A stretch of 63,092 nucleotides of DNA, the filler included, from Atractiella rhizophila (lineage: Eukaryota), in the NCBI GenBank assembly GCA_021432655.1. It is 13 parts of 12 records of this genome, joined end to end, with 100 filler letters (N's around TTAATTAATTAA, not from the genome) between each part and the next. Parts side by side here need not be neighbours in the genome. Positions count along the whole stretch, not along the records: positions 48,327 to 53,992 come from MU272357.1; 12 more parts are not named here. The stretch is one strand, 5' to 3'. The position numbers were made by a program, and so were the translations under genes. The notes under the pieces were generated by a model. The model saw only the letters and a program-made list of their open reading frames with translations. It was not told the DNA's origin and did no database searches. Every line of letters starts with the position of its first letter. The first letter of the stretch is position 1. This document shows positions 5,874 to 62,817 of this stretch, in pieces.

Positions 5874-5973
5874 NNNNNNNNNNNNNNNNNNNNNNNNNNN
5901 NNNNNNNNNNNNNNNNNTTAATTAATTAANNNNNNNNNNNNNNNNNNNNNNNNNNNNNNNNNNNNNNNNNNNN
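5874..5973. other. Artificial scaffold-joining linker (44N-TTAATTAATTAA-44N). Repeated at 11827, 17766, 23658, 29502, 35337, 36678, 42454, 48227, 53993, 59728 and 61377.
   Basis: Identical 100-nt cassettes with stops in all six frames. The intervening segments mostly decrease in length (5853, 5839, 5792, 5744, 5735 ... 5635), as expected for size-sorted scaffolds. Confidence 0.97.
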
Positions 5974-8359
5974 TTCTTCCTCAGTCTGTTCTGCCCAAAG
6001 TTCCTGCCATGCTTGCTGAGTACACATTTCTCCATCATGCTCATTGCTAAAACCAGGATTATCTTCTGGCGGTGATGCAGAAAATACCATCTCATGCATC
6101 AGCTGCTGTAATGAAGGTGGGAGAGGATTTGTCCAAACTCGCCGTGCTTGAAGAGAAGCGTGATGTGATGTTGGTAAGGTAAAATCAATGTCATCTGGTC
6201 CAAGAATAAATGGTGTCTGAGATTGGCATTCAGCATTATTCAGATTTGCTGGCTGTGCAAACAAGCGATTTGGACGATATATTGGCTCAAATTGAAGTCT
6301 TAGAGTTGAAGGAGAAGCGTTTGTGGCAGGCTCAGAAGCATCAGAAGTAGAGATAAGATGAGCATTGTTCCGGTGCTGGTTTGAATTGGCATGCCGTAAG
6401 CAGNNNNNNNNNNNNNNNNNNNNNNNNNNNNNNNNNNNNNNNNNNNNNNNNNNNNNNNNNNNNNNNNNNNNNNNNNNNNNNNNNNNNNNNNNNNNNNNNN
6501 TTTCCTCCCTTACATTTTGCAATGATTGATTGAGGTTTCCTTCTTCAAATCGCAATTAGCATCAGTCTCCTTTTAACTTTCGAGCTATCAGTTTACGAGA
6601 ATCCTGTTATCACACATGCCTGAAGGGCACACAACATTTGTAGCCGAATCAATCAAATGAAGTTACCTCCTCTTTCCAGTATCTTTCTCAAGATTATGTC
6701 CATCCAAGCTTCTATGATACACAGGTCAAATCCATAGGAACAAAGTCTGCATTTGAGCTTCATGCTTTTCACCCTTCACCTTTCCAATTGTGGACGAATG
6801 CTTCGAGTTCTTGACCCAACTTCTGCCATCCACAAATCATAGAGTTCTGTTATCTATCATTTCCGAGGGTCCGGTGCAAGGCGATCCCAGCCTGAATACG
6901 AGAGTGAAATGTAATTGTGATGTTGGGCTGAACCTCCATAGCACTGAAGTACTTCTCAGAGGTAAGCATGGCATGGACAAAGTGTTAAGAACAAGAAAGG
7001 TGAACCAAGATGACAATCGCCATCCAACATCGTCTGTGCTGCGCAAATACTCACCACTTTTGCTGCTGCTCACTTCTCTGCCTCACCAAATCCGGCTAAA
7101 TTCAAGATTGCTACGGACCAGTTGAAACAACTAGGATCATACCGCAAAGAACTTGTTCTCAGCTGGCAAAAAAATGGGTAAGTAGACAGTTCCTGTCACT
7201 TCCATGTCAGGTTTTGGCTGCTGAAAACGTATGTGAACCCTTACTCATTTATCATAATCGTCGTCTCATCTACAATAGTATCATCTTGATATCTCGAATA
7301 TTATACTTTAAGCCACTACTTTATCGAATACCCAAACCGCCTGCAATAATCGTCAACCTTCTTCTCACTTCTTCACCTTAGCTGACAACCCTTCGGATCA
7401 TAGAATCGCTGGGATATGACACAGCTTGCTGTTCACGAACTTACGCCCGTTATTCACGTTATGGGGCATTACCCCAACAGGAGTTGTTTCCCTATTATTA
7501 CTTGGACGAGTTCCTTTGTCTCTACAACATGTTTAAGGAATATCGTCATCCATCTAACGACAAACTTCCATTACCCAGTTGCCTCACATAACGTATTTTT
7601 GACAGAACTCGAAGCTCTTGGCATCCAACTTCAAAACCTCATCTTCTTTAATTTTGAATACATTGGGAGTTTGGCATGGTTTACGATACTCTATGAATTG
7701 CATTGTCTTCATCTTTACCTCTGGGAAGGGGGAGAAGGCATTGCCGTACTGGAACCTCTTCCTCAAGATGTTAATGACGTTTGGGAATTTCAAAGCTATC
7801 TGCTCACTTTCGAGAGCGAATCAGGAGTTGTCCCGATTCCACAGCAAATGAGTCGAGGCTCTTGGTGTATACAACTTACAACGCAGGCTAACAAGCCTTA
7901 CATATCTAGATTACCACCAGAACTGTTGCATTCCGTCTTGTCGATCTGTTTCGAAGGTGAGAAGGGGACCTACCAGAATCGAAGCTTTGCGATGCCTCAT
8001 CTACAGATCAAGGATTCGATCGAAGAGATGCAGCATAGACAAGACCTAACCAACTAGTTTACAGCGAATCAAGCTGGGAACTTACACAAAAACTCGCATC
8101 TCAGAGACAGAAATGATACTTCTCTCAATGCTTGTAAGTTACGACTGACAAGCAAATGTCAGTGATAACGAGAACCTAGCGCCGAATTTGTCAAAGTTCA
8201 CATTGAACTAGAAAGTCAACGGAAGAAAGTGATAATCAAGCCAATGACAGATCCAGCATCGAACAAGCGCAAGCGCGCTCCACCACACAGAAAAAGTGAA
8301 CCAACATGATGAAGATAGAAAAACCTTTCATGATGGGATGCACCGCATCAGGAGCTTCT

Positions 8360-11826: not shown

Positions 11827-11926
11827 NNNNNNNNNNNNNNNNNNNNNNNNNNNNNNNNNNNNNNNNNNNNTTAATTAATTAANNNNNNNNNNNNNNNNNN
11901 NNNNNNNNNNNNNNNNNNNNNNNNNN

Positions 11927-12434: not shown

Positions 12435-15400
12435 TCTTCAAATCAGAGAGGTACAGCATAAAGAAGGCTCTAGACTGGTTGCAAAGACTATTACAGGGGA
12501 TGAATACATCCTGCAAACTTTTGAACAATGCAGAAGGGAGCTGAGGAGAGAAGAAATGGTATGGGAGTTGCTAGAGGATGCATGCAAATGGATCGATGAT
12601 GCATATGCACCACCACATGTGATGCTGCAGTCAGGACCCACACTGTATCAGGAGTTGGAAGTATTGACAGAAGAGTTTAGCAGAGGCGATCAAGAGATAG
12701 AAAAGAAAGTCCATCTTGGCCCCTCTAATCCAGACTTCCAACATGTTCGGCAGCATATATCCTGTACCCTACACATCAAATCTAAGTTCTCAGCCCTCCT
12801 CACCGATTTCCAGATAGAACCACTAGTAGTTCTGAAATTTATCAACTCCTTCCACCGGACCATTTGAACTTGGCTCGAAGGTCTCAGAACAGTAAGCGAG
12901 ATAGTGGAGAGGGAGCAGACACTTACGAAGGTAACATTGGCGCCAGACTTGAGGCATGCACCGAGGGAGAAGGAACAGAAGATAAAAGAGAAGGAGGAGA
13001 AGATTAGAGAGAGAGAGAGAGGAGTTCTTTGCGTCATTAAAAGAACAGACCACCGTTTAAACAACCGATCCCACAACAGAACTTCGCTTTTGCCCAACCA
13101 CGAGTCAACCCCCCTTTTCAACATTGCTCGCTCACAAATCCTCAAACAGTCAGTGAACGTCGATTGGCATCACCCCTCATCCCACCTAAAGTTGAACATG
13201 GAGCGTGGAAAACATTCCTCATGAGTGAACAACAGGCTTACAACATAGTGTTCAACCAGTTCGTCAGCAAAGGGATTGCCGCTTCCCCACTAAACCCATT
13301 TCCCCTTTCGCCTGAAACCCTCCCTGCCGATTCCAATGATTACAACATCTGTGGAATGGAATGAGGAGGTAGAAGTCATCGCTGTGCAGCACCACCAGTC
13401 CCACAACTCGAAAAGCAATTCTGGTGGAGCTGTAGGAACCAGAAGTTCTTCCTCGTACAGGATGCCAACAAAATATCAGTGGAGTGGGAAGGGGATAAGG
13501 AAGCAGAAAGTGAGGTGAAGGAAAGATGGTAATGCACATTCATATCAAGAGAAGTGGAGAAGGGATTGGAGTCAAGAACAATGAAAAAAGGCAAGTACCC
13601 AACTCCTGCATCAGCAAGCAGTCTGCTCATCACATCCCACATCCAGAACCTTTGGGGAGAGATGATGAGTCGGTGGAACATCCTTATGTTTCAGAGAAAA
13701 AAGGGAAAGCTTGTCACTACTACGAAGAATGAAATTGCCAAACCATCCTCCTTTGAAAAAGCAAGGATCATACCTTGACTGGCCGAGAGAGATTTTAGAG
13801 AGGTTAGAAAGGAGAGGCATCAAAAAATTCCTAGAATCAGTCCCCTCTAGCGACTCAGGTCCCGTTGACTCTCAAACAGCGGGCAAAACCTGGGGGGAAG
13901 GTGCAGGCTCTTGCCTAAGCCTCGTAAGAGCATGCCCTCCCCAACCTGGACTGGGTTGGATATGAATGATCCTGAGATCCCTTTAGAACTGGATGCTGAC
14001 GAAGAATAATCCTCCTTGTCCTCAACACCCTCAATGTCTGATCGTGAAATCTCGCCCCTGCACATCCCATCTGAGATGCAATCCCCTCCTCTGTGGGAAA
14101 GGAGGGGGAATACAAAGACTCTTTCAACAGCGCCAGATCCAATACCCAAACAGGCCCCAAACCGAACACAGGACACCCAATCATAGCTTACAGCCATTGC
14201 GGACAGATATGACTGAGCCACACACAGCAGATACAACGATAGTGCCAGAGGAGCAGAGAACCAGTCCACCTCCATAGTCAAGCGCCATGGCACCCCCACT
14301 CGCTTCAAGCTCAGACTCAACAGAGACTCCAATCATCAATATACGATAATGCACACGATTCAACCAACTACCTCCTTGTATATATCTGTCTTTTTGAATA
14401 CAATCTGTAAATTGACTGGAAACAAGGAAACATCAAACTTGATCGTTATCCTACCAACTACGGCATCAACCAAACAAAACTGGATAGTATAGAGGCCAAA
14501 GAAATACGAAAGGAATGGATCAACGCTCAGCTACCCCCTTGGCTTGATACAGGTTTCCAGCCCCTTCAAGCCAATCTTGAAGCAGTTCTATCTCGAGCTG
14601 CCATTCCAACTGCAACAGCTGAAGCGATTGATCCTTCTCCATCTGACCTCATCAAGACAATCTACAAACACAGGATAGAGTGTGAGTGTGACCTGAAAAG
14701 CAACATGTATTTGAAACCCTTACCAGTATGTATTTTGGTTTCCCTTGGCCTCTATCCTGACAAACAATCAAGTCTTTTGTTAGGCCTCGATGCAAACCTC
14801 AAGGTCGCCAAGAAGGCAACCGTTTACACTACTGTGAAGGAGGCTGGTAGTCGGTAGTCATCAAAAAGTACAAGTTACAAATATTTTTGATGGAAGATTG
14901 TTGACAATGGTAAATAAGGACCAGGAACTTGTGGGATATGCAAGTTATAAGGTTGTTTTCATCTGTAAATTCTAAATTCAAGCCTAATAATAAGACTCCA
15001 GGAATTTCTTGTTGGAAACTCACCACTTGAGATGGGTCCACCACTTGAAGGTCATGCTCAATGTGCATGGTTACCTGGAGTCGATTTCGAAGGGAGTGGG
15101 GAGCCACACATCGACCTCTACTGTCAACATAGAAACAGTGTCCTTCTCTATGTGCCCAGACTCTGGATTGGACAGGATCTAGCTCATCTCGAAATGCATG
15201 TCTTTGAATTCCTCATACAAATCCAGCACAAGCAGATTTTGTCATGGTATTTCAAGAGGCAATCTTGAAGAAGAAGGCAGACTTGAAAAGTGGGGTTGCT
15301 GTTATTCAGTTAAAGAGAGAGCTTGGAGCTGCTTATGAAAGTTGAAGACAAGTTCCAGAAGAATCTTGATCTTTGGAACAAGTGCTACACCACATTCAAG

Positions 15401-16000
15401 CTTCAAAAGGGTCACATTGTGAAGGGATGCCTTATTCAAAAGCATCAGCAGCTCCCATTTATGTCATCAAATAATGAAAAGTGGCATAATGCAGCTTGCG
15501 AGCCTGGATCAGCTTCTTCTCTTACAACTGTTCTAGTGTCCTTCCCGATATCTTCTTACACAAGAACCTCCTTGTCAAAATTAGGACTGCTCTCAGCCAG
15601 CTGACTCAGCATCACGAGCATTTGGAAGAAGGTTTTTGAGGCTGGTACTCACCACATCTTTCTTATGGATCGGAATCTTCACCTGGAAGAAATCTTATAT
15701 TCTTTCCGCCTAAACCATTGGACTTTTTTTCGAAGCACGAGTTTGGATTGGTTAAGTGTGAAAGCAGTATGTTTTCTGTACTTGCTACTGGGAGTAGTAT
15801 ATTTATTGATATTCCATGATTTTAGATTTACAGGAGTTGACCTTGATTGCTATAAAGGGAAGCGAAAGGAGCTCCTCCAAACTCTGAACAAACCAGATGA
15901 TATCAAACACCCCGAAGTAATTGTATGGCTGTCATGAATAGAGTGGTTGTTGTTATGAATGGTAAGCTATAGCGGTTCTGAAGATGGGGGTGGGATGTGA
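12435..16000. mobile_element. Degenerate, CpG-poor repeat-derived region (possibly includes KDZ/CxC-type transposon remnants near 15000-15800)
   Basis: Many short broken ORFs and visible CpG depletion. VFEAG..YSFRLNH only weakly resembles CxC-transposase motifs. Confidence 0.3.
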
Positions 16001-17865
16001 GTGAGAGATTGTGGATGTATATTAGCTTTCATTCTATGGATTGGAGGACAATCGTGAAGGAACTTGAGGATACCCCTTCAATTTGGGCAATCCCCTCAAC
16101 AGCGAGGCAGATGTTGATGTGGCGAGTTTCTCTCTAACTCCATCCTCTCCGCACTGGAGGCGTCCACCCCCAAGGCGAAATTGTCTAAGTTTTCAAAGAG
16201 GTGGTGGGATCAAGATCTCAGAGATCTTTGTGCTAGAGCTAGTAGACGGAGAAATAGTGTCAGAGTTTGGCACCATTTTAAGCTGCATTCGTGCCACTGT
16301 CATTTGTGGCTCTAGTTTTCTTTCCCCTTTACAGTTTCTCTCATTTTGCCGAGTTCCTTAAGGTATACAAAGCTCATTATAACTTCATTGTAATTCATTC
16401 CTTTAGACCCTTGGAATCAACAAATAGGTTCCAGAAGACCAAGTCGGACAAGGACTATGCTGTATGGCAAAGTGCTCTCCAACAATTCCGTCTGGCAGTA
16501 GCATCGTGAAAGCAATCGCAATGGAAGAGTTTCCTAGCAGATCTATGGTGCAGGACGCCTAGTCCGGGCCTAAAATATGCAGCATGACTCATAGTGCTGC
16601 TGAGGTCCAAAACTTTTTTGCCGATCTTTTTGTATCAAATTTGGTGAATACTGAGTTAAGAAAACTGCCCATTATAAACATGTTACTCAAAGGCAAGGTG
16701 TTCACAAAGCATGCAGAACTTGCGACAAAGTTTTGTCTCAAGGTTGCGAAAAGTGTTTCAGAGCCGATACCCAACTGCTGGAAACCGGTTGTAGTCGAAA
16801 TTTACTCGGCTATATATGGGCCGAACCCGGCTATCAGCAATTTGCAAGCAAGTTACATCTTTCCGAAATGTCCAGAATTTGACTTGAAAGTGCTCAGCAG
16901 GATATCAAGCATCAACATTCTATCTTATAGTTTGCATCTTATAGGCCTCAATAAGCTATCTGTAAGATGAATAGTGTATTAGAGCTTTTCTCACTGCTGA
17001 CTTTTTGTTGTATATTTTAGGTTGGGACTAGGTGTCCTGCACCATAGATGAGCAGATGCTATGGACTGCATCATCATATGCCAAGCACGAGAACCTTGAA
17101 AGACTAGAGAATGATATGAATTTCGGTATTCGCGGGTACCCATACACGAGTACCTGCATCCGACAAGTATACGAACTACCTTTGGCAGCTGAATTAGATT
17201 TACGAGTACCTAACGGACGAGTATGTACCTTTTCTGTAAGGTATACAATGGTTGTAGCACCCAAAGCTGCGCCGAAGGGTGTACAGAACAGATAGAAACA
17301 AGCCGAATGCCGCGCACCGTGCCACCACCGGCTGCCAAGAATAGCCCAGACGTTTTGAAACCCAGGGCGGCCAGGGGTGGCGACACAGAGAGTCAACTGT
17401 AATGCGGTGGGAACGGAAGGCAGAGGCTTCGTGCTTCTGCATCTAAAAACCAAGTGTTCTCTCCTTGATTCTTCCCTCCATTTTCTCTTCAACCAAGCTT
17501 CAACAGGGTCAATTCCAGCTCACACCACCTCTCCTCTCACCCACAGCCCTCCACTTTGCAATCACAAACAACTCCGGTCATTCCAGGAGCAGCAGATTCC
17601 TGTCCAATCCTTCGCAACAACGCGTCAGCTTACCTTGCCTTTCGACGCGACAAGAACGTGCTGAGTCTTACAGAGTAATATGGCACCTTCGCACAAAGTA
17701 AGTCTTTACATTCTTGATGATAAAAAGGGGTGGGGAGTGTGACTTTTTTTGCAAAAGGCTTTACANNNNNNNNNNNNNNNNNNNNNNNNNNNNNNNNNNN
17801 NNNNNNNNNTTAATTAATTAANNNNNNNNNNNNNNNNNNNNNNNNNNNNNNNNNNNNNNNNNNNN

Positions 17866-19137: not shown

Positions 19138-20056
19138 GGTTGGCTGCATGTTGTCGTTTCAGTTTGCATAAAACGAATGTGAGGAATGTATTATGCTATT
19201 TAGATGCGAGGCGTAGGTTACAAGGCAAGTGTGAGAGTTGATTTATGACATTAGAGAGGGCCAATTTACAATACGGAACCAATACGGAGCACTTGGCTTT
19301 AGATGAAGATCATGGGAGGAGGAGTTGGAAGTTTGCTCACGAACAAAAGTTCGCCATGTCATGTGCACTGCACTTGAGGACTTTCTTGACACCTTTGGGA
19401 TCTCGACGTTGGGCCTCGAGAAATTCGATGTACGGGACAGTGAGTCTGCTCAACAACATAGGCTTTGTTCTCACAGGAGGACATTAAGGATGTGATTCCC
19501 AATGTCATCAGTTTGAAAGTAGACGCTACAACTATCTTTCTCCCTGCACTAACAAGAGGAACTTGCCTTTGGCTCGCGTATCATTGCAACTTTGAATTCA
19601 TTCTATGTTCATCGCTGCAACATTTACTTTTCTTTCCGTCCCACAAGCACAAGCGTAAAATGTTGGTAGGTAGGAACGAAGTCAATTGCACAAACAGCTC
19701 TTTCAATGAAAAACACGATTCTTCCAAACCAAAGGGTCAGAGCTTTTCCTCGTACTCACTAACGTAACAAGGAAAGTTGGCGTCGAGTACGTTCCTCAGC
19801 TCTCAAAGAGCTCCAGACTTTACCTCCTCCTTCCCGAGAGAAGGGAGAGGGCGTTCTAGCGCTTCTTTGAGGGTAAGACAACCGCCAGCAGCTTCATCAT
19901 GCTTTTTTGATTTTGGAAGAATCGAATTTTGCAGATGATGATGATGCAAGCTTTTATAGGCACACATCATCAACCCCCACAAAAATATGGGCGAAGTGTC
20001 AGCGCGCACCGCACCTTCAAAAGACAGAAACGAAAGGTAAAAAGGACAAAAGGTGA

Positions 20057-20134
20057 TGACGAGAGTGGGATTCGAACCCACGCCCGAAGACTGCGGCCTT
20101 AACACAGCGCCTTAGACCACTCGGCCATCTCGCC
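20057..20134 (-). tRNA. tRNA-Leu(AAG), intronless
   Basis: GGCGAGATGGCCGAGTGGTCTAAGGCG-CTGTG-TTAAGGC-CGCAG-TCTTCGGGC-GTGGGTTCGAATCCCAC-TCTCGTCA. A and B boxes present, with a downstream T-tract. Confidence 0.96.
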
Positions 20135-20262
20135 ATTTGATGAGAGGCGGTCCCGCTCTTAGTTTGTTAACTTTGCGCAAGTCAAGGGAAGCTTTCCAAA
20201 GCTGAGGTCGTCTACTCGAACCCCGACCAAACGAAGGAGGGCAGCAAGGGGCAGGCGGGGAT

Positions 20263-20558
20263 GGGGGAAGGGGCAGAGGGGGGAGGAGGGAGAGGAGGGA
20301 GGAGGAGGGAGAGGAGGGAGAGGGGGAGAGAGGAGAGGAGGAGAGGAGGGAGAGAGGAGGGAGAGAGGAGGGAGAGGAGGGAGAGGAGGGAGAGAGGAGA
20401 GGAGGGAGAGGAGGGAGAGGGAGGGAGAGGAGGGAGAGGAGGAGAGGAGGGAGAGGAGGAGAGAGGGAGAGGAGGGAGAGGAGGGAGAGGAGGGAGAGAG
20501 GGAGAGGAGGGAGAGGAGGGAGAGGAGGGAGAGGAGGGAGATGAAGAGGGAAGAGGGG
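20263..20558 (+). repeat. Polypurine (GGAGAGGAG-type) low-complexity tandem tract
   Basis: About 295 nt almost exclusively G/A. Confidence 0.95.
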
Positions 20559-22040: not shown

Positions 22041-24566
22041 GACTGCCTTCTATACCACATATAAAATCAATTCAAAACCAAAATCAAAATGTCAAAGAAA
22101 TCAATACCTGAGAATCTGAAGATGCTGGAGTACGATGGTCGCAGCTCGAAACAACACTACAAAGGCAGACTAAGACTAAATACTAAGATGTACTGACCTC
22201 GCTTAAATCTTGGGCGTTTCCATGAATCAGAAGTTCATGCAACGCTCATGTCTTTGAATACTTGATAAAGGCACATTTACGGAAAATTTGGGCCAAAAGT
22301 TTGCTCAATGTGGGAGACCCAGTCAATATTGACTGGAGTGGCCTTGGATTGTGGGACATGAGGCAGTCTCGTAAGTATTTGTTGTTGCTCATTGTAAGGA
22401 TCTTGGGGTCAATGTAAACATTGTAAAGCGCGTAGCCACCAACGATGTCTTCCACTTCTACACCTACCTCACCCATTCACTCACCAGCACTCCCCCGCTC
22501 GTCCACACTCTTCCCTCCTTCCGTTTCATAGAAGACAAAATTATCAAAGACCTTTTTCGTCTCTTAGACCTATCTTGAATCGCATACACGTCTTTCTCTC
22601 GTCTATTTCGCATCGATCTTAAATTTGGACCAGCATATGCAACAGGCGATTCCTTGACTTGCAGGCCCGCAAATTGCGTGGAGTGACTGGAGGCATGTTT
22701 GGAAGTGTGTTTGGGAGAGTCTTTGGATGAGATGTTGATTCGAAAAGAGGGGTGGGAGCGGTGGCAGTGGAACAGGAAGAGAAAAAGATTATGTGTGTAG
22801 TTAATGAAGGGTATTTGGAGGGATGGAGCATGGAGAAAGAGGGAAGGGAAAGTATGGTTATGGATCATCCGTTGAAGAAACCAGTGGCAGAGTTTTTGAT
22901 GAGGAATGTGGGTGTGCCAGAACAAGAAAGTCTTGCTGCACAAGTTATAGATGTTTCGTTTTCAAGATTTGATTTTTTTCTCTTTGATTTATTTCATCTC
23001 AGGAAATAATCAGCGATTTTTCTACGGTTCGAAACCGCTTGTATTCCTTGTCGAGTATCACCACCCCTCCGTAGTGCCTAACCTCCTCTCCTATCTCCTC
23101 CTCCTCGCCTCTCCAACCCTCAACTCATTCACTCCCCTCACTCTCACGTGCACACTCCTCCTCTCTCACACCTCCACTCCCCTCGTCTCGCGTCCACCCA
23201 AGCTCTACAAATCCGGCCCCTCTGCCTTCATTCTCTTCAGCTCTGCAGTCACATTTCTCAGTCTCTCTCTGGGCGTAGACTACGAAGAGGTTGTCTTATT
23301 GAAGAAGACTCCACGTGGGATATTAGGCTGTGGACCAGGTGTGAAGAGGACGAGTGAAGGATGGGGTGTGACGGTTGTGACGGGAAAAAGTGGGGTGTTG
23401 GAGATTAGCGTAAATGATCAAGCTGCGAGAGGAGGAAGGAAGGGTATGAAGATGAGACAAGCGTTAGAAACGAGCGGTTTATTTTGGAGAGAGGGAAGAA
23501 AATCCGTTGGATTTTGGTGTTAGTGGAAGATGGACAGATGAGGTTGAAAGCCATGCAATGGCAATTAGTAAAGAGGTATTGATGAATAGTAAGTGGAATT
23601 GAATTCGAAGAGTGAGTGTGTTGATGAAATGGACTAGCGTCAAGTAGATTGTCAAAGNNNNNNNNNNNNNNNNNNNNNNNNNNNNNNNNNNNNNNNNNNN
23701 NTTAATTAATTAANNNNNNNNNNNNNNNNNNNNNNNNNNNNNNNNNNNNNNNNNNNNAGAAAAAATGATTACCCCTTCGCTCGCAGATTCTGGTCTTTGT
23801 GACGGGCAGAGCTTCTCATTCGGACGAATAGCAGGAACATGGTGGTGCGTCTGACGCGAAAGTTTTGCCCTTTTGTTCATTCTACTGCTTTGAAGTGACC
23901 ACTGTCAAACGCTCGAAAATAGTGTGGCAGCATTGACTTACGAATTCTGGTCATGCATCCCCTTGGTTCTTGTTCTGAACAAATTCGTTTCGTTGACGGT
24001 AGCTAGTAGCTGCAGAACAGACAAGTAAATTGGACCGTCAATGTAATTTGGCAGGGTCCGTTCCATCTGAGCCTGAGTTGTCTCTTTTAACTTGAAAGTG
24101 ATACGCATCCACATCACATAAAGCATCATGTCTTGTTCACATTTTGTCCCCGCTGTTGCACTTTGTCGCAATCATAATGTTCAGGGAAGCGTGGCTGTGC
24201 TTTCCGCTATGTTCGACACATGGCCAAACGCGAAAAAACAAATCGTCTCCTTCGACTAAGACCACTCTTCTGTTGCTCGAGCGGTACAACGTCAATTCCT
24301 GATCTGTGAAGTGGAGCTAGGGAGACCTTTTGAGTTTGACTTGTATCATGCATGTTACCAGTCCACGAGGAACAAGGAGTGGCTTACAGAGCACACGAAA
24401 CAGCACATGCACACAGAAAGCAAGCATCATGTCGGTCTGCAGTACGAAGCTCCAAGCGAGGAGTGATCGAATCATCACAAATTGCTTAAATCAACCTTTT
24501 CAACCTCTCACTCAGTTTATCCTTCAAGGAATGATGGATACACGACCATGTTCTACTGGTGATGAA

Positions 24567-29135: not shown

Positions 29136-29601
29136 TGTCCATTTCGCGTGTGCAATCGCCAATAAGTTCCTCATATTCTTGTTTCTTATTTCTTTGATTG
29201 TTGTCATCAGTCGTATTCAAATCCAAATTATTGTTTTTATTCCGAGCATCTGCTTGAAGCTGTAAATTGAATCTGATTGCCTTGCAAGTTTGTTCTTGTC
29301 ATTCTTACTCTTGTTTTCTTCCTCCTTGTGTTTTAGTCTTCACTCCCCTGTAAACAAGGGTCAAGGAATTGCAACTTGTGAGTTCTCCATCATTGTTTAC
29401 AATAATTGGGCTCACGAATGTACCCCTACAGGTTTGCAGGGACAGATCTCAAGTGAACATCGTCAAATCGTCAGTCTTCATTTCGAATTTTGGGTGCAAT
29501 ANNNNNNNNNNNNNNNNNNNNNNNNNNNNNNNNNNNNNNNNNNNNTTAATTAATTAANNNNNNNNNNNNNNNNNNNNNNNNNNNNNNNNNNNNNNNNNNN
29601 N

Positions 29602-33399: not shown

Positions 33400-35150
33400 C
33401 TCTTCCATGCTATTAAGTGGAAATGAGAGCCAGTCTAGATTTTCACAAAGCTAGATGCTTGTCAGGGTTTTGCTTATGGAGCATGACTCACATTCTGAAA
33501 TATGTGGCAAATGGTCTAGAAGATTCTGTCAGGCATGTGGTAAATAGAGCTAATGGTGGAATATGCTGGAAATTCTGGAACTTGTGGCTGTCTGTGTATA
33601 AATATCCCTACCAATGGATTGAGATATCCAGATTGGTTCTCTTAGAATATCCACTCTACTTGGCAGCCCCCTACTCAATAGCTTGAGAGTGTCAGCCCTA
33701 ACGTCCTTGTTGAACCTGATCAAAGTCGATGGAAAGGCAGCAGATGTACATGGTGATGTAAGGACTGACATTTGGTGGGATGGGGACAGATGTAATGAAG
33801 GTGTATCACGGGCATCTAGAGCCACTGAAGAAATCTTCTTCCCTCCTTGCTTGGCTAAAGGCTTGTTTTTCCACATGTTCTCCTTCTCTGTTTTTTGGCT
33901 GCCTGCTCTGCCTTCTTCTGCACTCTTTCTTCCTTCCTTCTCTCGCCATCTACATCCTTCTCCTCAGCTTCCTTCTCATTTGTCTGCAGCTGGCAGGCAG
34001 CATCAAGTATGCTGAAAGCTCTGATGAGAAAAGCAGGTCCTGTCTTGGTTGTGAATCAGATTTCTTTGGCATCTGCTTGGCAAAAAACTGTGAGTGGCTG
34101 CTTAGGGTAGAAGTCATACAGATTCATAGGAGTGTGCAGGGAGATGGATGTGGTACTGTAGGCAGAGTTAGGAGGAATTGAGGATATCATCTAAATGTAT
34201 GTAGAGGTTGAAGCTGATAGGTATATTGATGATAGTGTCTGTTGGATGTCAGATGTGGACTTGAGTAATTGGATGATAGGAAATTGTCAAAGTATGGAGG
34301 GAGGATTTAGTATATGGTTGAGAGGTTGAGAATCGATAAGCAGAAAGCCTGAATTGATGCTATCAGGTTCATCAAGTTGAAGGTCTCATAATCCTCTGTA
34401 TCCAATAGTGCAGATTCATCCAAGCTAAAAAGGTCTTACAGCACAGAATTGGGAAGCTGTGTATATGTTGACATTTGGAATCTGGCACAGAGTAGTCTAT
34501 TCTCCGAAATTAAAACACTTGGTGCTGCTCAGTAGCCTTACAGAGTGTCAGCCCTAACAGATATGCCCGTTCCCTCCCATTGCCAAACAATACAGCGCAG
34601 AATGCACAGCACAATCTCAATAATTGTTCAAAAACCTATAGAAGCAAATGCAACTTACTATTCTTCTTATAGGTTGTTTATTCCTTTAAATAGGCCAATT
34701 GTTCAAGAGTTTAAGGAGAGTACAAACCTGTGGGACTGCCTGGGGCTTGATGGAAGACAAGGAACTTCTCAGTTTCATGTCTTCATCGATGGTAAGAAGG
34801 TTAATGTTGAGCAGACAATCCTGATGCATTCTTCACCAACTAGATTGAAATTCCTGCGATACCACCGACCACTCCTAATTTTAATAATGGAGACTCAGAT
34901 ACATTGTGCCTAGTGCTGACCCAATTTTTTAAGAATATGGGGAATGTTATTGTCAGTGTTTCCGGCCCTATCCTCATCACTAGCAGTGAAGGGACATCCC
35001 AGGAGTAGAACAATGGTGATGTCCTGGCCAACAATGATCGAGCTCTGTATCGCTTTATCTCCCCAGTTTTTTCCCTCCGCTGAGATCTAATTGTTCCCAT
35101 CTGGTCATCTGTTGCTGTGAGATGCATTACGGTTTTCATTGGATCCACCT
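33400..35150. mobile_element. Ty1/copia reverse-transcriptase relics and LTR-end fragments
   Basis: Minus strand KTGEIKRYRAR (~35075-35040, cf. GEIxRYKARLVA); plus strand DFHKAR..GF (~33440); LTR-end motif AGTGTCAGCCCTAAC at ~33688 and ~34544; CpG-poor. Confidence 0.55.
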
Positions 35151-35160
35151 AAGGCAGAAA

Positions 35161-35336
35161 AATTGTGCCTATCCTCCTCTTATTAACTCCACATAATCCC
35201 ACTGTCACTTCCCCTTTTAGTTCTCTTACATGTTTCATCTACTCTCCTCTACGCTTTGTGGCAGTGTTATTCCGCTTGTATATATAGATCAGAGAGTAGT
35301 GGAGGTGACCTTAGAGTATTCTCTTAGGTTTATCTC
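35161..35336 (+). mobile_element. Partial copy of the LTR at 21151-21555
   Basis: Ungapped alignment to 21282-21457 with 6 mismatches in 176 nt. Confidence 0.92.
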
Positions 35337-35436
35337 NNNNNNNNNNNNNNNNNNNNNNNNNNNNNNNNNNNNNNNNNNNNTTAATTAATTAANNNNNNNN
35401 NNNNNNNNNNNNNNNNNNNNNNNNNNNNNNNNNNNN

Positions 35437-36677: not shown

Positions 36678-37929
36678 NNNNNNNNNNNNNNNNNNNNNNN
36701 NNNNNNNNNNNNNNNNNNNNNTTAATTAATTAANNNNNNNNNNNNNNNNNNNNNNNNNNNNNNNNNNNNNNNNNNNNCTTCGAGTATTTCTGCGCATTCT
36801 CTTATTGTCGGAGCATGAGATTGGGATTATTCAGTGTTTTCAGGAGAAAGGCTTATCTCAGCATTCATGGGGGGAAAGGAGATGGAGGTGAAGACTGGGT
36901 ATAGACAATGTATGCTGTTTTCAATTCTCATTACGAGTCCGCATATTGCTCGATGGGTGAAGAATGTTCTATCACATGCTTTTAGCCATCTTCGAAGCAG
37001 CGTTTTTACAAACAATGAAGGGAGAGTGGTGGTAGAGAAGCCTTTCATCTAAAGGACCGCGTAATGTAATAATGCAGTAGTCACCACCCGTCGTGATACA
37101 TTTTTCGCAACGGATCATGCACTATTCGCCATCACCTTTAGCAAAACGACTGTCGTAAATTATGCAATACGTTAGATCTGGAGAGCTTGAGCGGCTCAGC
37201 TCTGGGATGAGAAGGAGAAGAAAGAAGATATGACTAAGTCGCCAGTGAAAGCTGTTCTCCCGCGCCAAGGCCCTTCACTAGATTAGAAAGCCTACCCCTT
37301 GTCTGTTTGATGAAAGAGAAGCCAGCATTTACATGCTTGGGTTGTTTCATACTCGTCAAGAAAACCATGACACATGAGGCAGCGGAGTGCTGAAAGGTGC
37401 AATGTCCCAATGAAGTCATGGCATTTATCATTTATGATCCGCCAATGAGGCGAGAATTGCTTCCCAAGCTGCCTACCCACACATCGCATGCCATCAGCCT
37501 TGTTCAGCAACTTACAGCTGTGCGGTTCCAAAGACAGGCGAGGAGGAAAGATTCAGGAAGAACTGCAACTTGAAGAACATGAGCCCGTTAAGGCGAAAAC
37601 TCCAACGACACCTTTGGGCATCGACAAACCTTTTAGCTTCAATACCTCATGCTCAGGCTCTTGGTTACCTTGTCTGTTTATACGGGGCGATTGTCTGAAA
37701 GATGGCAAGAAGTGCAGAAAGAACAGAAAGAATTGATTGTTCCCGTTCGGCCTCCACCTGTCTACCACCCGTCGCCTTGATGGATGGAGTTCAAAGGCGA
37801 AGACTGGCTTTCGGGGCTCCCTGCTTACCCAGTACATATAAAGCTTCCCTCGTCGTCCTAATCAGACATCAGACTCGTATCAGACCGAACAATAACTCAT
37901 ATAGCCAGCTGTAACAGTTCGACACGAAA

Positions 37930-41857: not shown

Positions 41858-42553
41858 CATTTGAAATGATGTTTGTGCAGTGGAAATGTCCTTGTTTAAG
41901 TTCCTTTATTTCGCTTGTTGTGATGCTCCGATGTAAGATGTTCAGGAGTCGGCGTGTTCCATGTTCTCCGTAGAGCTACCAAGTGGTTTCTATCCTCAAG
42001 ATCTGTATAACAAACATCCATTGAATTCAGAACTACACTGAAAGTTGGAAATGACATTGGACTTCCAACTTGATCATATCCTCACACAGTCGAACGCCTT
42101 GATTCTCCTTTGCGCTTCTAACAATTTCTTCTGCAGATCGTTCAGCTTGACACGCTCCCTTTCATGAGCTGGGTTGTCCTCCAACATTTGCACGATCTCC
42201 TGTTTGACAGTGTCGTTCATGGAATCAAAGGAAAATTTCTTCAGCAAGGCTTCATGGATCGACTGTGCCAGCGGCCGGAGGAATTTTTGATCGATTGCGA
42301 GAGCGAAGTTGTCGATAATTCTCTATTTCATAGATTGAGCAGAATCTATTGATGGAACTAACTCACTTTGTACGCAATCTAAAAGTTTTTCAGAGCGCGC
42401 AGACAAATAGTTAGAGTAAGCACTTACTTTCCAGTAGGCCAGAACGTCAGCCANNNNNNNNNNNNNNNNNNNNNNNNNNNNNNNNNNNNNNNNNNNNTTA
42501 ATTAATTAANNNNNNNNNNNNNNNNNNNNNNNNNNNNNNNNNNNNNNNNNNNN

Positions 42554-48226: not shown

Positions 48227-48326
48227 NNNNNNNNNNNNNNNNNNNNNNNNNNNNNNNNNNNNNNNNNNNNTTAATTAATTAANNNNNNNNNNNNNNNNNN
48301 NNNNNNNNNNNNNNNNNNNNNNNNNN

Positions 48327-50082
48327 ACAGCTTCTCATGCCGGAAAGGAGGAGGATTTGGTTCGCTACTTACAAATGGCCCGCAAGACTCTTCGTGAACC
48401 CAAGATTGACACTGAGCTCGCCGTCGCTTTCGCCAAGACCGACCGCCTGCACGACATGGAGGAGTTCTTGAACTACACGAACGTCGTTGATCAGCTCGCT
48501 GCCGGAGAACAGGTTTTCGAGGCTGGTCTCTACGAGGCTGCTAAGATTCTTTTCTCTAGCATTTCGAACTATGCTCGTTTGGCAACGACTCTCATCTATC
48601 TCGGGGAAAATCAAGCTGCAGTCGATGCGGCAAGGAAAGCTGGCAACACCCAGGTGTGGAAACAGGTCAATGCTGCTTGTATCGACAAGAAAGAGTTCCG
48701 TCTTGCTCAAATTTGTGGTCTGAACCTCATCGTTCACGCTGAGGAGCTACCGGTTTGTTTTCCATTTCATAAATCCAACTTTTCTGATATTTGAACGCAG
48801 GCTCTTATCTCGCTTTACGAAAAACGCGGACACTCCGACGAGCTCATTTCTATGATGGAGGCAGGTCTGGGTTTGGAGAGGGCTCACATGGGAATGTTCA
48901 CCGAGCTCTCGGTTGTATGTCCTTTGACTCTTCCTTCCTGCTGAGTTTTCCTCACAACTTTAAACAGCTCTATGCCAAGTACAAATCGGACCGTATGATG
49001 GAGCACCTTAAGTTGTTCTGGTCTCGAATCAACATCCCCAAGGTCCTCAAAGCTGCCGAGAAGGCTCATCTCTGGCCTGAGCTCGTCTTCCTCTACATCA
49101 AGTACGATGGTATGTTTTTGCTCGTCCCTTCACATATTTTCACAAGACTGATGTCTTTTTGATGCTCAGAGTTCGACAATGCTGCTCTTGCGATGATGGA
49201 GCACTCCGCCGATGGCTGGGAGCACAACCAGTTTAAGGATGTGATCGTCAAGGTCGCGAATATCGAGATTTGTTACAAATCCCTCACGTTTTACCTTCAA
49301 GAACAACCGACGCTCCTCACTGATCTTCTTACCGTCCTCATCAACCGGCTAGATCATACAAGGACGGTCAACATGTTCAGACGGACGGATAATTTGCCAC
49401 TCATCAAGCCTTACCTTATCGCTGTCCAATCCGTACGTGTTCTTCGCATTCTTGATCTGGACCACACGCTAACTCAGGATCGACACAGAAAAACATTCCC
49501 AGTGTCAACGCTGCACTTCATGAGATTCTGATTGAAGAGGAGGATTATAAGACGTTACGCGATAGTATTGATGCCTATGACGCTTATGAGGCTCTCGAGC
49601 TTGCATCGCGGTTAGAGAGACACGAGCTATTGGAGTTCAGGAGGCTGGCTGCTCACCTTTACAAGGTCCACTCTCTTTTCCTTGGTACTTGAAATATTCT
49701 GACGTGCTGGTCCCGTCCAGAAAAACGCTCGATGGGAGCTGTCAATTTCTCTCTCAAAGCAGGACAAGCTCTTCAAGGACGCAATGGAGACCGCCGCCGA
49801 ATCCAACTCTACCGAAGTTGCGGAGGACCTATTGAGCTATTTCGTGGACATCGGATCGAAGGAGTGTTTCGCTGCCTTGCTTTTCATCTGCTACGACCTT
49901 CTCCGGAGGGATGTGGTGGAAGAGTTCTCGTGGCGCCATGCTCTTACGGATTACATCATGCCTTACCGGTTGCAAGTCATGAGGGAACAGCAGACTCAGG
50001 TATGATAGTCTTCTTGTGCTGAGCGGCAGGCACTGACCGCTATGCAGATGGCATCGCTTGAGGAGCAGGTTAAAAAGCTGAC
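48327..50082 (+). CDS. CHC1: Clathrin heavy chain, C-terminal portion, multi-exon
   Basis: [80 protein letters not shown]. Confidence 0.98.
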
Positions 50083-50866
50083 NNNNNNNNNNNNNNNNNN
50101 NNNNNNNNNNNNNNNNNNNNNNNNNNNNNNNNNNNNNNNNNNNNNNNNNNNNNNNNNNNNNNNNNNNNNNNNNNNNNNNNNNNNNNNNNNNNNNNNNNNN
50201 NNNNNNNNNNNNNNNNNNNNNNNNNNNNNNNNNNNNNNNNNNNNNNNNNNNNNNNNNNNNNNNNNNNNNNNNNNNNNNNNNNNNNNNNNNNNNNNNNNNN
50301 NNNNNNNNNNNNNNNNNNNNNNNNNNNNNNNNNNNNNNNNNNNNNNNNNNNNNNNNNNNNNNNNNNNNNNNNNNNNNNNNNNNNNNNNNNNNNNNNNNNN
50401 NNNNNNNNNNNNNNNNNNNNNNNNNNNNNNNNNNNNNNNNNNNNNNNNNNNNNNNNNNNNNNNNNNNNNNNNNNNNNNNNNNNNNNNNNNNNNNNNNNNN
50501 NNNNNNNNNNNNNNNNNNNNNNNNNNNNNNNNNNNNNNNNNNNNNNNNNNNNNNNNNNNNNNNNNNNNNNNNNNNNNNNNNNNNNNNNNNNNNNNNNNNN
50601 NNNNNNNNNNNNNNNNNNNNNNNNNNNNNNNNNNNNNNNNNNNNNNNNNNNNNNNNNNNNNNNNNNNNNNNNNNNNNNNNNNNNNNNNNNNNNNNNNNNN
50701 NNNNNNNNNNNNNNNNNNNNNNNNNNNNNNNNNNNNNNNNNNNNNNNNNNNNNNNNNNNNNNNNNNNNNNNNNNNNNNNNNNNNNNNNNNNNNNNNNNNN
50801 NNNNNNNNNNNNNNNNNNNNNNNNNNNNNNNNNNNNNNNNNNNNNNNNNNNNNNNNNNNNNNNNNN

Positions 50867-52420
50867 ACGCGCATGACTAGCCTAACTCGGGTCCCTGTTC
50901 CCGGGCGGTCAAGCTCAGCTTGTGTTTTGCTTATCTCAAGGTTTCCCTAGGTTTTCTACGTCCCGCTAGCTGGCGCTGCGATTACCTTTTCTTCACTAAC
51001 CGCCTCACCTCTCGTTCCTAGTAAGTCCTCTGGAGGAGTTTGGCTGTAGTAGGGACTATTTCGTGTAGCGGGCGTACCCAAACCCTACAGACGCGCTTAC
51101 TTACAGGCTTGCCATTTGTACGCGAAAGTTAGAGGGAGGCGGACCACGTTATATTACTTGTTTACAATCAGGGCAGAACTGACCAAAACGTAACAAAGAT
51201 TCGTAGCTTGGTGAAGCCTCCTTCGGCAGCCATTACATACAAGAACCGACCAGTTAATACTGGAAACGGCTTATAGCGCTTGGTTACAAGCGACCATGTA
51301 CTACTCGCGGTGTTCCGGGTCCAGTCGTCTTTTCGATCATGGCTTTTGCTTCCGTGCTGTGTCTCTACGAGCTTACGTAGGCAGTCCCTTGTAAGGAGAT
51401 TGCTTACGGAACTTAGTCTGGTGAAGTTGAAGGGAGCCGAAACCTTGTGTCACACGGACACTAGGGCGTGGACTGTTCGCAAAGTTCAAGCGCTTCGTGT
51501 TACTCCTCGCATTTTCGGCAAGAGGTCGGGGCTAACTTAACAAGTAATAGTTGTAACCGCTTTATCGTTCCGCATGAATTAATCGTAGCAGGCTGACGCG
51601 TTGTCCCAAACGGCACGCGCCCGTTCATTAGGGGACTCGGATTCAAACAGCACTACTGTATAATATAGCTTAATAGAGTAACTCTCCGCGCGCACTTCAC
51701 ACTTCGGCTCTGGTAGTGCAACGGCAAAATCGCTTCGTTATTCGTTGCTGTTCTCTTATTCCTGGAGAGGCCGATCGCCTTCTTGAACCCCTCCACCCTC
51801 CGTAGGTTAGTGCGGTCAATTTTAGAGCCCACCAAGTCACCAAGTCGCCTTGTATTACGCTTCTATCTTTACAGAAAGGAGGGACTCGACGTTTACGTCC
51901 GTCGACTTCGCCCTTCTTACTAAACTACTTGTGTAAATCCATTGCAAAGTATAAAAGCAGACCGAGGTGGCCGTGTTCCTTACCACTCTCCTCCGTGTGG
52001 AAAGTATACCCTATGGTGTTAATCGAGAGTACGGAAGAAATAGGAAGGACAGTGAAGAGATGGTAGGGAGGTCGGAGAGTTAAGTGGAGTCTTGAGTTGA
52101 CGAGGAGTGGGGGTGAGACCAAACGAACTTAGTTCTAGTAAGCGACGGGCCCCGATGCACAGACGGTAGGGGAGGAGGGTACTCGTTTGAGGTTCAGGAG
52201 GCCGCTTATTGACTGTACTCTTTGATTACTCGCTGGACAGATCGAGCGAACCATAAATGAAGGTGCTTAACCATCTCGTGCTACTTCTAGTGTCGCTTCT
52301 TAGGCTCTCGTAAGCGCTACAACCAGTCTCAAGACAGGCTTTCATAAAAGAGCAGGTCGTGGCTCTGCTTTTCCTCTTACTCCCTACTACTCTTTTTCCC
52401 TTCTACTTTCACTGTCTTTA
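50867..52420. other. Segment reversed but not complemented
   Basis: TA/AT bias is inverted (hand count over 51001-51240: 20 TA vs 8 AT). Reading backwards gives a recognisable gene and intron-like signals. Confidence 0.85.
52224..52346. other. OST4: OST4-like oligosaccharyltransferase subunit exon, legible only when the + strand is read backwards (52346->52224, no complementation)
   Basis: Backwards codons give ILSDRTLTNIANALGFFAVIFIVLYQFVEVNTKRARQVAH*, matching the OST4 pattern (I.D..L...AN.LG.....L(I/V)VLYH(F/Y)V.VN). Confidence 0.8.
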
Positions 52421-52426
52421 GCCATA

Positions 52427-53992
52427 ATGAAGACCTGTGCAACATTTCTTGCGCTTGCTCTCCCATTCGCAGCGCATGCGGCCTTGAGCGATGCGGGTTC
52501 GTATTTTGCCTTTCGAGTATAACGTCGACCCATGGATATTGTCCAGATGTCGCCTCCGTCTTCCCTAATTCACGAAACGACCTCACGTCGTTAACCAGCG
52601 CAACTGTTCGATTTAGGCAGTACACTGCTTCCTTTGTAGCAAACACGTCGCACGTTCTTAGTGAGCAGTTTCATTTAATCATTACTGAGATCCTGAACTG
52701 AACTGAATGGCGTTCAGTCACCCTGAATAAGACGGACGCGACGAGGGATCGAGTAGGATGGATGGGTCATGGCATCGGTGCGTCTTAGACGATTCCGCGT
52801 GAAAACCCCATTTCTGATGTGGAGACAGGAACTGGAATGAGCAATGGAGATTTGTATGCTATTTGGCCCAATGATGACGACACCTGGACGATTTCACATC
52901 GTCAACCAGCCCAACACGTCCTTCCATCTGTAATAACTTCTTCCGTGGGCTTGTACAGCGTGGTCCCTTCGCTGTCGACCAATTCAACCTCTGGGACTTC
53001 TTGGACCGCCGTCTCTTTCATTCGTCCCCTTTCTTTCGCAAATGTCGCAAGCTACGGTACAACTTCCCAGCACGTTACGATTGCGAGAGAGGCTGGTCAG
53101 AATCTTCTCTACACGTATGGATCACAGAATCCTGGGTCAAGCGGAGATCTCGTTGAACACGTCGATCAAGGAACGGCATCAGCTGATTTGTCCAAGGCCT
53201 ATGTCCCTGAATCCTCTGGAAACGGAAGTGGAGGTGGATCTGGTGGATCCGGCGGTTCTGGAGGATCTGGAGGGTCTGGCAATGGCGGTGGCAGTAACGA
53301 ACCTCAAGTTGTCACAGCTGGCTGGACTCGCCACAACAAGCTGATAGTATCTCATGGTCCGTCGCTTCTTTCCCTGTAGAGATTTCCCTCGAACTCACAA
53401 CTGGCCCAGCTGTTTTTGGAGGCGTGGCTTTCATGATAATCTCTCCAGCAGCCATTCTGTTTGGACGATACTTCAGGTCTCATAAGTGGCTGCCCATCCA
53501 TCGAGCCCTTCAGATCCTTACAGCCATTTTCGTAATCATTGCTTTTGCGTTAGCCGAAGTAGCTACTGGTTCTGATAAGAAACATACACATCACGTGAGT
53601 TTGCATCGCCTCACCACTCAATATTAGAACTAAGACTCTGAGCAGAAAATTGGTTATGCCATTTTCGTCATTACGCTGTTGCAAGGCATCATCGGTCTAG
53701 TTGCGCACCACATCAAATCACCGCCTGGTTCGAATCGCAGTCCCCTTCGTTGGGTGCATGTCTTCGTTGGTATCGTTCTGACCGGCTTAGGTTATTCTCA
53801 AGTGCGAACTGGAATGGAGGAATGGGAGAATGAGGGCTCAGAAGGCATGACAGCTCCGAAAGGTGTTGAAATCGTCTTCTATGTTCTTTTGGGTGTTGAG
53901 GTAGCTGCTTATCTCATCGGCATCTTTCTCTCCCCTCGAACTTTCCTTGGGAGAGCACCAAGGACTGTTGAGCAGAAGCATGAGATGGAGCA
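52427..53992 (+). CDS. Signal peptide + CDH-type cytochrome/DOMON domain + G/S linker + cytochrome b561 ferric-reductase-like domain, 3' truncated
   Basis: MKTCATFLALAL; VGWMGHGI|GTGMSNGDLYAIWPN..TISHR; LIVSH..ISPAAILFGRY..WLPIH; HTHH; RWVHVFVG. Confidence 0.88.
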
Positions 53993-54092
53993 NNNNNNNN
54001 NNNNNNNNNNNNNNNNNNNNNNNNNNNNNNNNNNNNTTAATTAATTAANNNNNNNNNNNNNNNNNNNNNNNNNNNNNNNNNNNNNNNNNNNN

Positions 54093-59727: not shown

Positions 59728-59827
59728 NNNNNNNNNNNNNNNNNNNNNNNNNNNNNNNNNNNNNNNNNNNNTTAATTAATTAANNNNNNNNNNNNNNNNN
59801 NNNNNNNNNNNNNNNNNNNNNNNNNNN

Positions 59828-61376: not shown

Positions 61377-62817
61377 NNNNNNNNNNNNNNNNNNNNNNNN
61401 NNNNNNNNNNNNNNNNNNNNTTAATTAATTAANNNNNNNNNNNNNNNNNNNNNNNNNNNNNNNNNNNNNNNNNNNNCGTCGTTCGAGGAAGTCGGACAAT
61501 CTGAAAACGATCGAAGAATAATGCGGGCCGGCGGGAATATGTATGGGGTATTTGGGTTTCGGTGTTTTGTGAAACTTGAAGCTGTCAATATGACCATCCA
61601 TTGAGAAAGGTCTGGGAGAGGCAGGGGAGAGAGGTAATGAACCGAGTAACTAGACTGGAGCAAAGAGGGATTTCTACGGCATTGGAGTTTTCTTCCCGGA
61701 AGCGGTGCGACAGTTTCCCTGACGTTACCAGTTTATCAGTGTACAGCTTAGCGCTTCCCTCTAGGTGTGGATGCTGCTTTGATTCACTCATTTCTCGTCT
61801 TTGTCAATGCGGCGAACGCCTATGCTTGCGCTGTTGATGTACTTCGAAGTCATTGCCCGTAGCAGGACGTTTTGCTTTCCAGGAGGATAAGGATTGATCG
61901 TCGCGTGATCCTGAAGTTGATATATGATATGTTGAAGCTAAATCTTCTTCTTTCAATGTGGAAAGAATCCTTGTTCGACTGGCGCCTATGATGTCACACT
62001 TCATGTCGTTAAGACTTCCCAAGATGAATAAGGAGGAAAGAACAAGAACGCCTCCTGGAAATGCTCCTGGAGTGTCTTTGGAGTTGATGTTATGGCTATT
62101 GGATAACCAATTTGCTACTCGTCTAATCACCATCCTCCTGCCCCTATGAGATAGAAGAAGAATATAGGGGAGTGCTGACAATGATAACGTCCCTGAACGG
62201 ATAAGATTGAATGGGAGTTAAGAATCATACCTCGACGACTCATTATAAACCAAAGTCTCTCTTATCTTGAAACTTTATGATAGGCCCTATCTACCTCTTC
62301 GTAAAAAAACAAGTTCGGCTGACTTGAAGGCAAACGTGACCTTGTATCATGTCCTGTATATGAGCTCCACACTTTCGTTTGATCAAGCAAGTCCGTTTGG
62401 CCGAAGGAGGCATGGACACACGTCCCCTAGATCGGCAAGCTCCACTAATACTTGTTCCTCCTCATTTCAGACGTAGGCCTCTTATCGTCGACGACCCGAC
62501 GTTGTCGCCGACTTATGGCCGAATGTGTATGTTTTAACGCCTATGCCTGCCTGTGCCTCCTCCATTGGCATCGGCGAGGCCGCACCTCCACCGCATCTCT
62601 CTCAGAGTGAATGCACCTGCAATAGGAAGTGGAGTTGGATTCTCTAATGAAGCTGAAAGTGGAGTGCAGAAAGGGCTATAAAATCGGATGGTCCTGCCCT
62701 TGAAAGAAGCAACTCAAATACGAATCTCAGAAGACAGTCACCGAGCGTTATCGAAAAAACTCACATTTGTACGCCTCCCACTTCCCAAAAAAGAAAGCTG
62801 ACAATGATTACAAGACC

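Follow-up and report, generated by a model that had tools for sequence, protein, structure and literature searches.

A 1476-base block stored backwards and uncomplemented beside a scaffold gap in a genome record of Atractiella rhizophila

A misoriented contig, in its ordinary form, is a reverse complement: it keeps the TA/AT ratio and the other strand-symmetric dinucleotide classes of the DNA, and read mapping to it still works. Sequences that are plainly reversed, i.e., written in the opposite letter order without complementing, serve in regulatory genomics as deliberate null or control designs. To our knowledge, polymerases and recombination give reverse complements, and no templated process gives a plain reversal. 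Our search of the literature found no paper on assembly errors that were reversed but uncomplemented, which does not show that none exists. Here we describe a block of 1476 bases in a genome record of Atractiella rhizophila whose letters run backwards without being complemented. The block is an artefact and not a biological feature, and no new mechanism is involved.

The window, by which we mean the whole stretch of DNA that was analyzed (63,092 bases), consists of 13 pieces and 12 copies of a 100-base linker, and is no single natural molecule (Table 1). Each linker is made of 44 N, the 12-mer TTAATTAATTAA and another 44 N, and the 12-mer carries stops in all six frames. The lengths of the pieces drop steadily from 5853 to 5635 bases, with the exception of two pieces of 1241 and 1549 bases and of the two that are truncated at the ends of the window. 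Since unplaced scaffolds have here been strung into a pseudomolecule, adjoining pieces are not necessarily neighbors in the genome. A contig separator with TTAATTAATTAA between N runs, intended for pseudomolecules of unfinished genomes, is described in PMC539331, and the same 12-mer flanked by N runs joins the pieces here; the separator is a documented and harmless convention that accounts for the linkers, not for the reversed block. The block lies in the scaffold at 48327-53992, which is composed of contig A (48327-50082), a gap of 784 N (50083-50866) and contig B (50867-53992). The sole other internal gap in the window, at 6404-6500, holds 97 N.

Two further features of composition were seen in other parts of the window. 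Over most of its length CG is about as frequent as GC, and strong CpG depletion was observed at 13501-16000 and 33501-35336, with 1-9 CG vs 16-27 GC per 500 bases; these two CpG-poor regions could be old repeats or mutated transposon sequence. At 20001-20500, AG+CT plus GA+TC made up 227 of about 499 dinucleotides and TA and AT occurred 6 times each, a long purine/pyrimidine tract of the GA/CT type.

Table 1. Positions of the reversed block and of the landmarks around it, counted along the window.
Feature	Positions	Strand	Basis or remark
Block of 1476 bases, letter order reversed, uncomplemented	50867-52342	.	composition and left ends of public contigs
OST4-like open frame, 38 codons and stop, one hydrophobic helix	52224-52340, read right to left	.	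flipped translation
Contig A, C-terminal exons of the clathrin heavy chain gene, truncated by the gap	48327-50082	+	PF00637; normal dinucleotide ratios
Scaffold gap, 784 N	50083-50866	.	N run in sequence
CT-rich tract, leader or promoter-proximal, of the following gene	52343-52426	+	X1 (52343-52672) and X3 (52343-52496), 0 differences
CDH-cyt/DOMON-type and cytochrome b561 gene, overruns the scaffold end	52427-53992	+	spliced contigs, Pfam
Exons of the DOMON/cytochrome b561 gene (about)	52427-52495, 52546-52660, 52718-52776, 52828-53355, 53409-53594, 53646-53992	+	
Introns of the DOMON/cytochrome b561 gene, GT..AG, 50-57 bases	52496-52545, 52661-52717, 52777-52827, 53356-53408, 53595-53645		X3, X4, X8
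Linker N44-TTAATTAATTAA-N44	48227-48326	.	divides the scaffold of the block from the preceding one
Linker N44-TTAATTAATTAA-N44	53993-54092	.	right end of the scaffold
Identical linkers, first six of 12	5874-5973, 11827-11926, 17766-17865, 23658-23757, 29502-29601, 35337-35436		
Identical linkers, last six of 12	36678-36777, 42454-42553, 48227-48326, 53993-54092, 59728-59827, 61377-61476		

Plain reversal swaps TA with AT, CA+TG with AC+GT, and AG+CT with GA+TC. Since reverse complementing leaves these three dinucleotide classes unchanged, their ratios provide a test for reversal that is independent of strand. In the block, the ratio of TA to AT was 101:51, compared with 2447:3790 in the rest of the window (Fisher p 3.7e-11), the ratio of CA+TG to AC+GT was 145:205 compared with 8181:6397 (p 5.8e-08), and that of AG+CT to GA+TC was 223:181 compared with 8238:9169 (p 0.0018). 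Thus, inversion was seen in all three informative classes of dinucleotides that are sensitive to reversal and symmetric between strands. An earlier note on this DNA had drawn attention to an excess of TA over AT in this region, opposite to the flanking DNA; its counts were exact (TA 20 vs AT 8 in 51001-51240, and 5 vs 0 in 52361-52420), and the excess in the block does run against the rest of the window. When the block was set against 229 windows of the same length, its log2 TA/AT was +0.99 and the background was -0.64 (sd 0.19, maximum -0.18), giving a z of 8.6.

We also scored the DNA as given versus reversed using a strand-symmetric 5-mer model that was trained on the window minus the block. 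The block scored -50.0, whereas the background of 229 same-length windows scored +39.5 (sd 9.9, minimum +16.2; z -9.1). All 200-base sub-windows from 50801 to 52301 were negative, compared with a background of +5.4 (sd 3.7). In the whole 63-kb window, the top reversed-like segment scored 55.6 and the runner-up 7.1; the block is the single reversed segment of its kind there. A biological inversion was considered and rejected: it would keep both the strand-symmetric composition and the coding content in six frames, and the block keeps neither.

The string as it is written in the record was then read for coding content. The interval 50867-52420 holds 14 stop-to-stop frames of at least 50 aa, with no usable ATG-started length. 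A Pfam scan of the 10 longest (58-93 aa) yielded no match at the curated cut-off (0/10), and a single one of these frames gave a weak match below the cut-off, to DUF7708 (18 bits vs 25). The view in the earlier note that no recognizable gene is present as written is in agreement with these scans, and it is unlikely that a public gene model is based on such frames. The longest frames were 136 aa in the flipped reading and 93 aa as given; neither length stands out from shuffled sequence, in which the longest frame averaged 111 aa and reached 203 aa, and both are uninformative.

We consider it very probable that 50867-52342 is ordinary genomic DNA stored in reversed letter order, uncomplemented, that it is flipped in place in the organism, and that the reversal has its origin in software. 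The chief alternative is that the original public assembly is free of the reversal, which would have been added later, when scaffolds were strung together or reformatted, or as a deliberate scrambled control. The window has visibly been post-processed, with its 12 N44-TTAATTAATTAA-N44 linkers and the roughly descending size of its pieces, and regulatory genomics makes use of plainly reversed sequences as designed controls. However, the left end of the block coincides with the first base past the 784-N gap, so that its boundary is an assembly landmark; for a random edit, the probability of starting at the edge of the gap is about 1 in 63,000, whereas gap-filling or joining does so naturally. 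Moreover, the 5-mer reversal score showed no reversed-like flank at any of the 12 linker junctions, nor at the gap 6404-6500, the flanks of which scored normally at +20.2 and +14.7. We therefore regard a later edit as unlikely, and favor a reversal that arose by computation at the gap.

Public sequence data were used to locate the right end of the block. Twenty public runs share sequence with 50867-53992, of which six are root metatranscriptomes; the best one contains 0.42 of its words and none contains half or more. Four of the runs (X1, X3, X4 and X8), from four different organisms, were aligned to this interval in the form of contigs. In X1 (organism A, probably DNA), a contig of 1519 letters (record 1) matched 52343-52672 over 330 letters with 0 differences, and its remaining 1189 letters continued leftwards, unlike the window. 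In X3 (organism B, spliced contigs), a contig of 650 letters (record 9) matched 52343-52496 with 0 differences and was spliced at the first intron. The contigs of the other two runs stop short of the breakpoint, that of X4 starting at 52459 and that of X8 ending at 52428.

The 30 letters to the left of 52343 were the same in X1 and X3 (two of the four aligned runs), and they were the exact reverse of 50867-50896. The chance of such an identity over 30 letters is negligible. To the right, starting with 52343, the public contigs agree with the stored sequence, which makes 52342 the last base of the block and places the breakpoint exactly between 52342 and 52343. The right boundary of 52420 proposed earlier must be moved 78 bases to the left. 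These data also show the flipped string to be present in the organism, directly at the junction, where the left flank in the contigs was compared over 30 letters; for the other 1446 bases, we infer an unbroken reversal from the composition and from the open frame at the opposite end of the block. Depth was zero over 50867-52336 in all four aligned runs, with cover from 52337 on, and among the contigs listed none spans 52342/52343 in the stored order; the zero depth is compatible with a reversal, but in contig data missing cover proves nothing, and we give it no weight.

The same letters bear on how the block should be turned. If it were complemented in place, the small gene described below would be encoded by the minus strand and transcribed divergently from the DOMON gene, and the dinucleotide statistics would be the same as those of a reversal, so that composition cannot separate the two. 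But since the loose letters before 52343 are the reverse of the far end of the block (50867-50896), and not the complement of 52313-52342, the block is to be flipped in place; complementing in place is refuted at the junction, and we give it practically no weight. The suggestion in the earlier note of an in-silico plain reversal, to be undone by flipping the segment where it stands, was borne out by these letters in X1 and X3. That the string as given is physically real in the sequenced strain, as an unusual sequence or a strain-specific rearrangement, is hardly credible: any string can in principle be DNA, but this reading has no positive support, templated processes yield no plain reversal, the flipped form was found at the junction in two runs (X1 and X3), and the k-mers of the block as given are, from one end to the other, those of DNA read backwards.

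Two observations were made on the ends of the contigs. The contig from X3 continues for about 488 letters to the left of 52343, reaching about 570 before the ATG, and this extension is either a long leader of the DOMON/cytochrome b561 gene or the product of overlapping transcripts of two genes. The contig from X8 terminates at 52428 in 23 loose letters which, we presume, resemble a sequencing adapter, and this may be where a cDNA ended, at the start codon.

With the breakpoint in place, the CT-rich tract at 52343-52426 falls outside the block. The earlier note had counted this tract as part of the reversed segment, an assignment that is contradicted by the contigs from X1 and X3, which show it in its natural orientation; the tract indeed stands just before the ATG of the DOMON gene, as it is stored, and not ahead of the OST4-like exon, where a flip with the boundary of the note would put it. 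The tract has a TA:AT ratio of 7:2, and its excess of TA, including the 5:0 in 52361-52420, arises by chance from the composition of a natural leader rich in CT.

We next describe the block in its flipped form. Contig B then opens in frame, with 38 codons followed by a stop (stored positions 52340 down to 52224), and contains a 19-residue stretch with a mean Kyte-Doolittle value of 2.19. A frame that is open at the edge of the contig, with a stop after 38 codons and a hydrophobic stretch, was found in the flipped reading only. OST4 is the mini-subunit of oligosaccharyltransferase, of about 36 residues and with a single membrane helix. We take the 38-codon frame to be a candidate for this small subunit, by a likeness that lies in the 38 codons and stop at the start of the flipped block and in the 19-residue hydrophobic stretch. 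It differs from OST4 in that the frame, being open to the contig edge, has no start codon within the block. The 784-N gap would take up the start codon, the first codons and the promoter of the small gene, as well as the end of the clathrin gene. The approximately 1.36 kb after the stop of the small gene are non-coding or without assignment in the flipped reading.

The block was compared with 31 metagenome loci (151,353 bases) whose products are related to the clathrin fragment at 42-80% identity. By blastn, neither the flipped nor the as-given block had a match in these loci. A tblastn search of the same loci with 45 flipped frames of at least 20 aa gave no significant match (best E 0.007), a result on a par with that of a control search with 49 as-given frames, likewise of at least 20 aa, which reached a best E of 0.024. 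Neither an OST4 look-alike nor synteny was found in the 31 loci, and an exact 26-base pattern from exon 1 of the DOMON gene had 0 matches in the metagenome contigs.

Smaller signals in the block were also counted. Patterns resembling an intron (donor, branch site and acceptor) numbered 0 in the flipped block and 1 in the block as given, so that the intron-like end which the earlier note had offered in support of the flip does not speak for it; the background rates of the pattern, 0.63 per kb as given vs 0.77 per kb reversed, have no power to separate the two readings. CCAAT occurred 3 times in the flipped block and 0 times as given, numbers that are too few to weigh.

The genes on either side of the block are stored normally. 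Contig A had TA 60 and AT 101, and Pfam domain PF00637 (Clathrin) was found in it twice, with 95.6 bits at 48327-48758 and 33.4 bits at 49721-50002 (cut-off 29.6). On the other side, the DOMON/cytochrome b561 gene starts with an ATG at 52427 and its first exon, judging from the translation, is signal-peptide-like. All five of its introns were seen spliced out in contigs of X3, X4 and X8. When single exons were scanned, PF16010 (CDH-cyt/DOMON-type) reached 25.1 bits (cut-off 27) and PF03188 (cytochrome b561) 23.7 bits (cut-off 23). The shortness of the introns, the clathrin gene and these domains are in keeping with a fungal origin.

In the organism, the base stored at 50867 directly adjoins 52343, as the contigs from X1 and X3 show, and the one stored at 52342 would come first after the gap. 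The corrected scaffold would then run from the 3' exons of the clathrin heavy chain gene through the gap to the last 38 codons of a tiny, OST4-like membrane protein with one helix, and on through about 1.36 kb to the DOMON/cytochrome b561 gene. The order put forward in the earlier note, CHC1, gap, OST4-like gene and DOMON gene, is supported by the in-place flip, with the amendment that the start of the OST4-like frame is placed in the gap.

Because a plain reversal is impossible for polymerases and recombination, the step that produced it was computational, and because the block spans from the edge of a gap to a point internal to a contig, it was presumably a step of gap extension or of contig joining. 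Most likely, the contig would have been extended leftwards into the gap, its new letters being collected outward and then prepended without being turned. A sub-contig in minus orientation that was complemented but left unreversed at joining would fit equally well. Both slips would leave a shortened gap, here of 784 N, with a backwards block alongside. It is possible, though we say so tentatively, that the fault is a systematic one of the software, and that further backwards blocks stand just after gaps elsewhere in this assembly, perhaps also in other assemblies from the same pipeline. If so, each block would hide real genes and feed nonsense to annotation and to sequence models, and a strand-symmetric reversal score would find the blocks in one pass.

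For users of the record, the consequences of the reversal are practical. The 1476 bases are unreadable to tools for alignment, gene finding and read mapping, and they conceal the 3' portion of a putative OST4-like gene, which is small and would probably be an essential one of a glycosylation complex, as well as the complete region upstream of the DOMON/cytochrome b561 gene. The value of the finding lies in a record to be corrected, a hidden gene end, and a simple statistic for quality control: classes of k-mers that are kept by reverse complementing and swapped by plain reversal flag such errors cheaply and without reference data.

Compared with known systems, the block is like a misoriented contig or a local inversion misassembly beside a gap, in that a gap-bounded block runs in the wrong direction and turning it restores gene order and reading frames. 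Unlike an ordinary misorientation, however, it is reversed only, its composition is inverted, it has no match in six frames, and neither of its strands is real sequence. With the designed reversed controls it shares an order of letters that is reversed without complementing, a base composition that is kept and signals that are destroyed. Such controls are deliberate constructs, whereas the block described here stands in a genome record, at the edge of a gap, with no marking as a control.
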